In this document: positions 8,672 to 8,851 of the stretch, one piece after another | Layout of the letters: each line of letters begins with the position of its first letter | Position numbering within the stretch: position 1 is the stretch's first letter | Source of the DNA: an archaeon | GTDB lineage: Archaea > Asgardarchaeota > Heimdallarchaeia > Heimdallarchaeales > Heimdallarchaeaceae | Direction of reading: 5' to 3' | Assembly: GCA_030631995.1 (NCBI GenBank) | Contig: DAOVKB010000036.1 | Location: forward strand, 1 to 11,091 | DNA: 11,091 nt | Made by a program: the position numbers and the translations under genes | Notes under the pieces: model-generated | What the model was told of the DNA's origin: nothing | Seen by the model: only the letters and a program-made list of their open reading frames with translations | The model's database searches: none

Positions 8672-8851
8672 CCTAGTAAAGTTTTCAGGTTCGGAATGAG
8701 TCTGAGTGTTACCCCTTCACTATGGCCGCGACGCATCGCAGCGAACGGCCGTTCCCAAGCCCTCGCGGAACTTAGTACAGAGCCACACGTTGAAGGACTT
8801 AACTTTCCCGACCATCTGGAACGCACCCAGATGTTGTCTGACCTTACTAGG
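8672..8851 (-). rRNA. 5S rRNA gene in circularly permuted order (3' half - UGCG loop - 5' half) with flanking 10-bp helix and extra hairpin
   Basis: Minus-strand RNA read from 8851 down to 8672, in order. (1) CCUAGUAAGG. (2) UCAGACAA. (3) Hairpin CAUCUGG-GUGCGUU-CCAGAUG. (4) GUCGGG. (5) 3' half, 8806-8736: AAAGUUAAGUCCUUCAACGUGUGGCUCUGUACUAAGUUCCGCGAGGGCUUGGGAACGGCCGUUCGCUGCGA. (6) UGCG loop, 8735-8732. (7) 5' half, 8731-8685: UCGCGGCCAUAGUGAAGGGGUAACACUCAGACUCAUUCCGAACCUGA. (8) AAA. (9) CUUUACUAGG. The two halves match archaeal 5S hallmarks: GCGGCCAUAG, CAUUCCGAAC, AAGUUAAG, GUACU...GCGAG...GGGAAC, GUUCGC. Helices fold by eye. Helix I is UCGCGGC/GCUGCGA. Helix II is GUGAAGG/CCUUCA(A)C. Helix III is UCAG/CUGA. 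Helix IV is CUAAG..GCGA..CUUGG. Together the halves total about 120 nt. The region is visibly GC-rich in an AT-rich window. Confidence 0.8.
8813..8833 (-). other. extra hairpin inside the permuted 5S transcription unit (not part of canonical 5S)
   Basis: Perfect 7-bp stem CAUCUGG/CCAGAUG with loop GUGCGUU. It can be extended by GAC (8838-8836) / GUC (8812-8810) across an AA bulge. It sits between the 5' flanking helix and the AAGUUAAG loop-B segment. Confidence 0.6.

Follow-up and report, generated by a model that had tools for sequence, protein, structure and literature searches.

A circularly permuted 5S rRNA gene of Heimdallarchaeota with a likely bulge-helix-bulge motif at its junction

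The stretch of DNA analysed here (the window) comprises 11,091 nucleotides (nt) from an archaeon of the Heimdallarchaeaceae (GenBank assembly GCA_030631995.1, contig DAOVKB010000036.1, positions 1 to 11,091). Its minus strand carries at 8852-8666 a circularly permuted 5S ribosomal RNA (rRNA) gene of Heimdallarchaeota (Asgard archaea). At Rfam gathering thresholds, tRNA-Ser was the only match in the window and no 5S was reported; in a permissive scan, a contiguous reading of the gene gave a forced global match to the 5S family RF00001 of 18.1 bits, against a gathering score of 38. When the halves were searched separately, RF00001 model positions 1-49 matched 8733-8685 (30.3 bits, E 2.5e-5) and model positions 49-119 matched 8806-8734 (20.4 bits). 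As these two half-matches lie in swapped order, the 3' two-thirds of the 5S rRNA is encoded upstream of its 5' third. The breakpoint corresponds to model position 49, between the 3' strand of helix III (CUGA) and loop B (AAGUUAAG). [quoted passage not shown]

The minus-strand order of the unit, from 5' to 3', is CCUAGUAAGG, UCAG, ACAA, a hairpin, G, UCGGG, AAA, GUUAAG..., the capped helix I, CAUAG..., CUGA, AAA, CUUUACUAGG and UCUUUU. The leader strand CCUAGUAAGG (8851-8842) and the trailer strand CUUUACUAGG (8681-8672) form an outer helix of 10 base pairs (bp), including one G-U pair. The leader then contains a distal UCAG (8841-8838), which is a copy of the 5' strand of helix III and was the partner that the earlier note assigned to CUGA, an extra hairpin (8833-8813) with a 7-bp stem (CAUCUGG/CCAGAUG) and the loop GUGCGUU, and, 1 nt downstream of the hairpin, the proximal strand U-CGGG (8811-8807), which is followed by three unpaired nucleotides, AAA (8806-8804). 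The 3' part of the 5S rRNA (8803-8743, within the match to RF00001 positions 49-119) includes the 3' side of loop B (GUUAAG), the 3' strand of helix II, helix V, loop E (GUACU / UGGGAA) and helix IV, whose loop is GCGA. Helix I is a 7-bp hairpin, GCUGCGA-UGCG-UCGCGGC (8742-8725). In a collinear gene the 5' and 3' ends meet at the tip of helix I; here the tetraloop UGCG (8735-8732) closes the helix instead, so that the 3' part precedes the 5' part in a single unit and the native ends are joined by a 4-nt UNCG linker. The 5' part (8724-8690, within the match to RF00001 positions 1-49) includes loop A (CAUAG), the 5' strand of helix II, the 5' side of loop B, the 5' strand of helix III (UCAG, 8705-8702) and loop C through CCGAA, and ends ...UCAGACUCAUUCCGAAC just before CUGA (8688-8685). 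In the mature RNA, the segment C-CUGA (8689-8685) would serve as the 3' strand of helix III; in the precursor, it would be the trailer-side strand of a central helix. It is followed by the trailer bulge AAA (8684-8682, or A8685-A8683 in an alternative register), the trailer strand and, directly 3' of that strand, the U-rich tract UCUUUU (8671-8666), a probable archaeal terminator. All bases cited in the earlier note were found in place, namely UCAGAC in the leader (8841-8836), UCAGAC in the 5' strand of helix III (8705-8700), CUGA and the AAA that follows it.

The permuted-order pattern AAGTTAAG..GTACT..TGGGA..CCGAAC was used to search for homologues. It matched 39 stretches among the GTDB species representatives, about 30 of which belong to metagenome-assembled genomes (MAGs) of Heimdallarchaeota, and 23 stretches in metagenomes of the Joint Genome Institute (JGI), about two thirds of which were accepted as family members on inspection. 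The false positives of the pattern scan, which were recognized and discarded, were collinear 5S genes (haloarchaeal, Thermoplasmata and eukaryote-like) that have CCGAAC downstream by chance. After removal of collinear 5S false positives and duplicates, 43 distinct genes remained, nearly all from Heimdallarchaeota MAGs, and these constitute the alignment A1 on which the following counts are based. Both RF00001 halves are present, and the motifs of loops A, C and E (CCAUAG, CCGAAC, GUACU and UGGGAA) are invariant or nearly so. Helix I is capped by UGCG, UUCG or UACG in most family members. An Rfam scan of 18 related family loci reported 5S in none of them. The closed genomes of Ca. Heimdallarchaeum aukensis (CP084166) and Ca. 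H. endolithica (CP084167) have two permuted copies each, one of the main type and one of the L014 type, with nearly identical 5S bodies, and no further 5S was detectable in either genome beside these two copies. The authors of both genomes stated that no approach had allowed 5S genes to be predicted (PMC8813620); the presence of two permuted copies per genome would explain this absence. When JGI metagenome contigs were searched for the junction expected of an unpermuted gene or a circle (ACTCAGACNCATTCCGAACCTG N2-8 GTTAAG), there were 0 matches, which indicates that close unpermuted relatives are absent from that collection; the contigs represent mainly DNA and the result is therefore uninformative for RNA. 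Four paralogue pairs (L014/L033, L027/L017, L016/L037 and L009/L013) have 5S bodies that are 92-100% identical, while the leader and trailer helices of paralogues from the same genome are unrelated (10-50% identity), as expected if the flanks are needed for pairing alone.

Several loci recovered during the search are described separately. A main-clade permuted 5S gene (L015, 7223-7339) was found on a contig labelled Candidatus Thorarchaeota (QM1B.68); it is very similar to that of Heimdallarchaeota YT1_029 (L034), with few differences in the body, and the contig is likely mislabelled or mis-binned. A cytidylyltransferase-like open reading frame (ORF) with the motif GGTFDR.H.AH, probably encoding a phosphopantetheine adenylyltransferase, lies beside the 5S gene in L030 (4621-5091) and in L041 (2591-3106), which suggests that these two archaeal lineages, both divergent and hairpin-less, are related. 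Six tandem units of eukaryote-type 5S with a spacing of 1,410 bp were found at 325-7527 of L026, a contig of a MAG labelled Metamycoplasmataceae, and probably represent eukaryotic contamination of the bin. Tandem collinear 5S units were also found in L053.

Pairing was scored on A1 for the outer helix and the leader hairpin and, within the 5S, for helices II to V and the capped helix I. Over the whole structure, 92.9% of the cells are paired and 34 of 45 pairs change on both sides, compared with 30-45% paired in a slid control in which the partners were shifted by 1-3 columns. The structure is accordingly under selection, and the flanking helix is not a product of chance. Among the 5S helices, helix II is paired in 96.5% of cells (5 pairs change on both sides), helix V in 88.8% (5), helix IV in 96.5% (3), helix I in 99.3% (3) and helix III in 97.1% (2), the last with the covarying versions CCAG/CUGG, CGGA/UCCG and CAAG/CUUG. 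In the outer helix, each of the nine scored pairs shows changes on both sides, as in UCUAAUGGCA/UGCCAUUAGA and UCUCAACGAUG/CACUGUUGAGA; the tenth pair (8851/8672), which was scored as a separate single-pair row, likewise changes on both sides. The sequences of this helix are entirely different between lineages and between paralogues of one genome.

The leader hairpin is absent in L020, L030 and L041. Elsewhere six of its seven stem pairs change on both sides, and it always lies 0-1 nt 5' of the proximal strand; this constant position suggests that the hairpin stacks on the junction motif as its outer arm or as an extension of that arm. The hairpin is identical in one paralogue pair whose outer helices are merely 10-40% identical. 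Its moderately conserved loop could be a candidate protein-binding site. In the family consensus, the hairpin loop (GGAUGCGUUCC, window 8820-8826) and the helix I cap (GCGAUGCGUCGC, 8732-8736) share GAUGCGU with the core UGCG; in the window the hairpin loop is GGGUGCGUUCC, and the stretch shared with the cap is UGCGU. The two loops do not covary, and the likeness probably reflects convergent use of stable UNCG-type loops.

The geometry described in the earlier note holds in the window: if CUGA pairs with the distal UCAG, the 10-bp helix, a 3-nt bulge and a 4-bp helix follow one another, with the bulge 3' of the central strand. What had been overlooked is a second partner for the 3' end of the 5S body. 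The leader strand (U)CGGG (8811-8807), 3 nt upstream of GUUAAG, supplies a second bulge at the other end of the 5S, and "half" a motif is therefore too little. CGGG (8810-8807) pairs with CCUG (8689-8686), and U8811 can also pair with A8685. This proximal helix is a perfect 4-bp helix in 43 of 43 genes, in five versions (CAGG/CCUG, CGGG/CCUG, CCAG/CUGG, CGGA/UCCG and CAAG/CUUG), where chance would give a perfect helix in ~3.5% of cases per independent lineage. Columns 73-76 of A1 are paired with columns 196-199 in 42-43 of the 43 genes (C-G, A/G-U, G-C, G-C), and the U-A pair that defines the register of the earlier note is absent in 15. On the leader side, a bulge [A/U]AA separates the central strand from GUUAAG in every gene; on the trailer side, three nucleotides are unpaired (AAA, AAU, AAG, AUU or AUA), with 0-1 more depending on the register. 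A motif of the splicing-endonuclease type, composed of a 4-bp helix and 3-nt bulges, thus occurs at the permutation junction throughout the family; the earlier note had supposed such a motif for the window.

The proximal helix is paired in 92.1% of cells and the distal one in 86.9%. Main-clade sequences are too conserved for covariation to separate the two helices there, and the decision therefore rests on the divergent members and on geometry. Seven of the 43 genes (the L014 type, L020, L030 and L041) have no equivalent of the distal site, so that the proximal helix is their sole option. In minimum free energy (MFE) structures, the minimal leader/trailer substrates (5S body removed) of L030 and L041 adopt the textbook succession of helix, 3-nt bulge, 4-bp helix, 3-nt bulge and helix. 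L014-type genes have the hairpin and lack the distal site, and their MFE structure adds a 4-bp arm, GUGG/CCAC, beside the proximal helix. The flanking helices of a strict hBHBh' motif are present in L030, L041 and the L014 type. L020 has neither the distal site nor the hairpin, and its minimal substrate, with an irregular outer arm, does not fold into the motif. The proximal helix is favoured in the minimal substrates of the window, where it is the MFE fold, and in those of L060, L014, L030, L041 and L009. The junction is therefore likely a full but relaxed BHB motif that uses the proximal leader strand, as judged from sequence and predicted pairing. The distal UCAG proposed in the earlier note is a possible partner in most main-clade genes and is favoured in predicted ensembles; given its absence in seven genes it is probably not the partner used, and it may represent an alternative or earlier conformer.

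Several results weigh against the proximal motif and are collected here. The minimal substrates of L005, L016 and L017 do not favour the proximal helix. When full precursors of the main clade are folded as ensembles in ViennaRNA, the probability of the proximal helix is near 0, and either the distal UCAG/CUGA pairing (0.5-0.98) or helix III is favoured. In the clade of the window the motif is non-canonical, as the leader strand makes a 30-nt excursion (UCAGACAA, the hairpin and G) before the central helix is reached. The inner arm is short there, consisting of GUU/AAC or of 5S loop-B pairs (GUUA/UAAC), and its bases are invariant, which places it beyond a test by covariation. An extra G permits four or five central pairs (U8811-A8685 in the window), and the register is ambiguous. 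Finally, the distal NCAG and the hairpin loop show about the same degree of conservation as the 5S body, which a leader that is simply discarded does not explain.

The gene appears to have transcription signals of its own. Among 21 genes compared, most of those of the main clade and of the L014 type have a conserved block, CCAATAG(T/C)AA...TT(C/A)AAAAA, at ~22-30 nt upstream of the leader helix, and the corresponding region of the window (8890-8852) is a probable promoter with a B recognition element (BRE) and a TATA box. The TATA-like box ATTCAAAA (8882-8875) is centred ~26 nt before G8852/C8851, and the probable start of transcription is therefore the first base of the leader helix. In most family members a T-run comes after the trailer helix. 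The predicted start and the U-tract directly after the trailer helix together give a primary transcript of ~187 nt. Scans of the window for sigma-70 promoters and intrinsic terminators found nothing, their models being unsuited to archaea.

We propose that the primary transcript runs from the leader strand of the outer helix to the U-tract past the trailer strand. In this precursor, C-CUG-A (8689-8685) would pair with the leader (U)CGGG (8811-8807) and not with the internal strand of helix III, giving a central helix of 4-5 bp with the leader bulge AAA (8806-8804) on one side and the trailer A-bulge (8685/8684-8682) on the other, while the outer helix and the leader hairpin would supply the outer arm of the relaxed BHB. 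A BHB is cut after the second nucleotide of each bulge, a rule derived from the position of canonical tRNA introns. By this rule an (alpha-beta)2 tRNA-splicing endonuclease would cut two nucleotides into each bulge, with the 5' cut at A8805|A8804 or one nucleotide upstream and the 3' cut after A8684 or A8683. RtcB would join the 2',3'-cyclic phosphate to the 5'-OH, yielding a covalently closed 5S rRNA of 121-123 nt. After ligation, CUGA could re-pair with UCAG (8705-8702) to form helix III, and the leader, including the hairpin and the distal UCAG, would be discarded together with the trailer. Pairing with the leader would block helix III, and the earlier note was right that CUGA has to change partners. 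The predicted proximal junction reads ...CCGAACCUGA(A)1-3|AGUUAAG..., that is, CATTCCGAACCTGAAAGTTAAGTCCTTC with three A's, or a form with four or five A's depending on the register.

Three lines of evidence bear on this scheme. Cuts two nucleotides into the bulges give a window product that reads CCGAACCUGAAAGUUAAG (...CCGAACCUGAA|AGUUAAG...), and the spacing at this junction equals the Rfam consensus spacing, which counts in favour of the proximal cuts; the trailer A-bulge does lie where, as the earlier note had argued, 5S continuity needs a cut. In circular folding, circles of 121-123 nt adopt the canonical Y-shape of 5S rRNA, whereas the MFE structure of a 153-nt circle does not form it. 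The architecture of EndA, which the earlier note had left to be checked, is given in the literature: Kaneta et al. reported that Asgard archaea have an (alpha-beta)2 EndA with an L1 loop and a relaxed substrate range, and one of the four Asgard genomes in that study, Heimdallarchaeota AB_125, is the source of family member L007 (PMC5829648). A relaxed specificity matters here because the motif of the window is itself relaxed. Ligation of EndA products by an RtcB-type ligase has been described for archaeal tRNA exons, pre-rRNAs and the signal recognition particle (SRP) RNA of Thermoproteus (PMC4731332, PMC12918454). We consider it probable that some EndA-dependent excision and ligation occurs, with circularisation as the most likely outcome of the splicing motif; the more specific proposal, in which cuts at the proximal motif yield a circle of 121-123 nt free of the hairpin, is held with less assurance, though we judge it better than even.

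The product foreseen in the earlier note was a larger circle of about 150 nt that keeps the hairpin. In that scheme, CUGA pairs with the distal UCAG in continuation of the 10-bp helix, and EndA makes one cut in the AAA bulge and another in the leader about 2 nt past UCAG, near 8836/8835. The context would be that of a bulge-helix-loop, on which the hairpin is stacked like an inner arm, so that a circle of ~153 nt with the hairpin in loop B results and CUGAAA is joined to AACAUCUGG (8835), giving the junction CCGAACCTGAAAAACATCTGGGTGCG. The distal pairing is stacked on the outer helix without a gap and is the dominant one in the ensembles predicted for most main-clade precursors, its element is kept as NCAG, and the hairpin that it would retain has a covarying stem and a loop about as conserved as the 5S body; the Asgard type of EndA accepts relaxed helix-bulge-helix and bulge-helix-loop motifs (PMC5829648). 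We regard this scheme as unlikely nonetheless, since the distal site is missing in 7 of 43 genes and its first position is unpaired in 14 of 43, while in the L014 type, L030 and L041 the proximal motif is clear and the hairpin is either left out of it or absent, and the Heimdallarchaeum genomes contain both types of gene with nearly identical 5S bodies. Within the 153-nt product, the retained UCGGG would compete with helix III, the MFE structure of this circle is non-canonical, and the position of the proximal motif, which restores the 5S spacing, would have to be a coincidence. Use of both sites in turn would explain why the distal UCAG, the hairpin and the proximal strand are conserved together in the main clade: cutting and ligation at the distal site would give the ~153-nt circle, in which the hairpin becomes a true outer arm (hairpin, AAAA, CCUGA/UCGGG, AAA, GUU), and a second round of EndA and RtcB would remove it like an intron to leave a circle of ~122 nt. 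The geometry for this follows from sequence by pure inference; two rounds are unnecessary in the L014 type, L020, L030 and L041, we know of no RNA with such a pathway, and we consider it very improbable.

It is also doubtful, to about the same degree as the single distal cut, that the RNA stays permuted and linear, either with the leader/trailer helix as an end clamp in place of helix I or after trimming by another nuclease, so that the ribosome carries a 5S rRNA open between helix III and loop B. A break there leaves the helix III hairpin intact through its 5' strand, which makes a nicked molecule structurally plausible, and the 5S rRNAs of brown-algal mitochondria are permuted in their final linear product (PMC4267664); the lack of the circular junction in JGI contigs, mostly DNA, points weakly in the same direction. 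However, an end clamp has no need of a universal 4-bp helix with 3-nt bulges and compensatory changes at both ends of the 5S body, and in a linear RNA that kept its leader the strand pairing with CUGA would block helix III. RNAs excised at BHB motifs have ends ready for RtcB, and they are circularised in the case of archaeal pre-16S, pre-23S and Thermoproteus SRP RNA (PMC4731332, PMC12918454). That the gene yields no functional 5S at all, being a rearranged pseudogene in decay or coding for some unrelated structured RNA while the true 5S is encoded elsewhere, would accord with its contiguous Rfam score below the gathering threshold (18.1 vs 38 bits). This is extremely unlikely, as 43 distinct genes keep all 5S helices with compensatory changes and invariant motifs in loops A, C and E, a conserved promoter-like box and a U-tract belong to the gene itself, and the complete genomes hold two permuted copies each and no other detectable 5S. 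An assembly artefact from collapsed tandem 5S repeats was rejected, given the unique flanks, the native ends 4 nt apart and the same layout in two closed genomes.

In the vicinity of the 5S gene, a tRNA-Ser(GCU) gene (8975-9057, plus strand) is oriented divergently. A conserved block, AATTTAAA(C/T)ATTTCGA (minus strand, 8927-8949), corresponds on the plus strand to a TTTAAAT box ~30 nt upstream of tRNA-Ser. A tRNA was present in 13 of 18 scanned family loci, mostly within ~300 nt of the permuted 5S gene. ORFs of 44-76 amino acids overlap the 5S gene (8696-8926 and 8706-8867 on the plus strand, 8659-8826 and 8720-8854 on the minus strand); they are almost certainly spurious, and the source assemblies call no gene there. 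The region 1-4524 (minus strand) contains DNA gyrase genes, namely gyrB (2431-4524) and gyrA, which runs past the start of the window, and two ORFs of the plus strand (1-372 and 1552-2043) are shadow frames antisense to gyrA.

A literature search for permuted 5S in archaea or Asgard archaea, with subscription-only papers outside its scope, gave only a paper on organelles (PMC4267664). Permuted tRNA and SRP RNA genes are known; what is new is that a 5S gene of a cellular genome is permuted and has a splicing motif at its junction. If the proposal is true, it would provide the first permuted 5S outside organelles and also the first case of a ribosomal RNA that its gene order obliges to be circularised, and the rescue of permuted genes by tRNA splicing, known for tRNAs and one SRP RNA, would extend to a core ribosomal RNA. 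The model predicts a circular 5S in the mature ribosome. We see an even chance that a whole clade of Heimdallarchaeota has permuted 5S genes only, in which case its ribosomes would carry an obligately circular 5S produced by EndA and RtcB. As a rare genomic change, the permutation could distinguish branches among the Heimdall lineages; it may be of phylogenetic use as a discrete character that is hard to reverse, in a lineage central to the debate on eukaryote origin. The tight UNCG join of the native ends could mean that the gene originated by reverse transcription of a circular 5S RNA. Since Rfam misses the permuted 5S, as seen in the 18 loci scanned, genome-quality standards that require 5S would under-rate such genomes.

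Several known systems share parts of this arrangement. The mitochondrial 5S rRNAs of brown algae and other stramenopiles are permuted and linear, and standard 5S models fail to detect them (Valach et al. 2014, PMC4267664; Rfam mtPerm-5S). In both cases helix I is closed or replaced by a hairpin and the new ends lie elsewhere. The mtPerm-5S, however, belongs to organelles, has its ends at the alpha/gamma junction and has no splicing motif, whereas the Heimdallarchaeota gene is broken at helix III/loop B, and in the Rfam scans of the window no 5S-type family other than RF00001 matched. Circular isoforms of canonical 5S have been described in Sulfolobus and Halobacterium (Danan et al. 2012, as cited in PMC12558985), and a covalently closed RNA derived from 5S in archaea is what they have in common with the product proposed here. 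In the account given by the citing paper, those isoforms have heterogeneous junctions, are read as linked to degradation and come from collinear genes with no junction motif (PMC12558985).

The circular pre-16S, pre-23S and 23S RNAs of archaea are closer in mechanism, as a processing stem of leader and trailer with a BHB directs excision and circularisation of the rRNA, and the large rRNAs demonstrate that a circular or permuted rRNA can reside in the ribosome. Their genes are collinear and the permutation exists at the RNA level alone. In the archaea studied, 5S is stated not to use this route (PMC12918454); in Heimdallarchaeota the 5S gene itself is permuted, which makes circularisation, or at least cleavage, obligatory. 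As in permuted tRNA genes, a single transcript has the 3' half upstream of the 5' half. The circular intermediate of a permuted tRNA is re-opened at the ends of the acceptor stem to give a normal linear tRNA, while in the 5S gene a tight tetraloop joins the native ends and a re-opening step is not evident. Permuted tRNA genes are known from Cyanidioschyzon merolae, where, as related in PMC4267664, the transcript is cut and ligated in the correct order (Soma et al. 2007).

The closest parallel is the permuted and circularised SRP RNA of Thermoproteus tenax and T. uzoniensis, which has a BHB formed by leader and trailer, serves as a substrate of EndA cleavage in vitro and occurs as a circle in vivo (Plagens et al. 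2015, PMC4731332). There, circularity and EndA cleavage were established by experiment; for the Heimdallarchaeota 5S both are inferred from the gene. In each case an essential, universal and structured RNA has its halves swapped, the canonical gene had been reported missing, the leader and trailer can form a BHB at the new ends, and circularisation restores, or would restore, the functional topology. Thermoproteus also has a heterotetrameric EndA of relaxed specificity, as reported for Asgard archaea. The two systems differ in that one concerns the SRP RNA of Thermoproteales and the other the 5S rRNA, a component of the ribosome, in Heimdallarchaeota, where most members have an extra leader hairpin and a distal partner strand and where the native ends are closed by a 4-nt UNCG loop.

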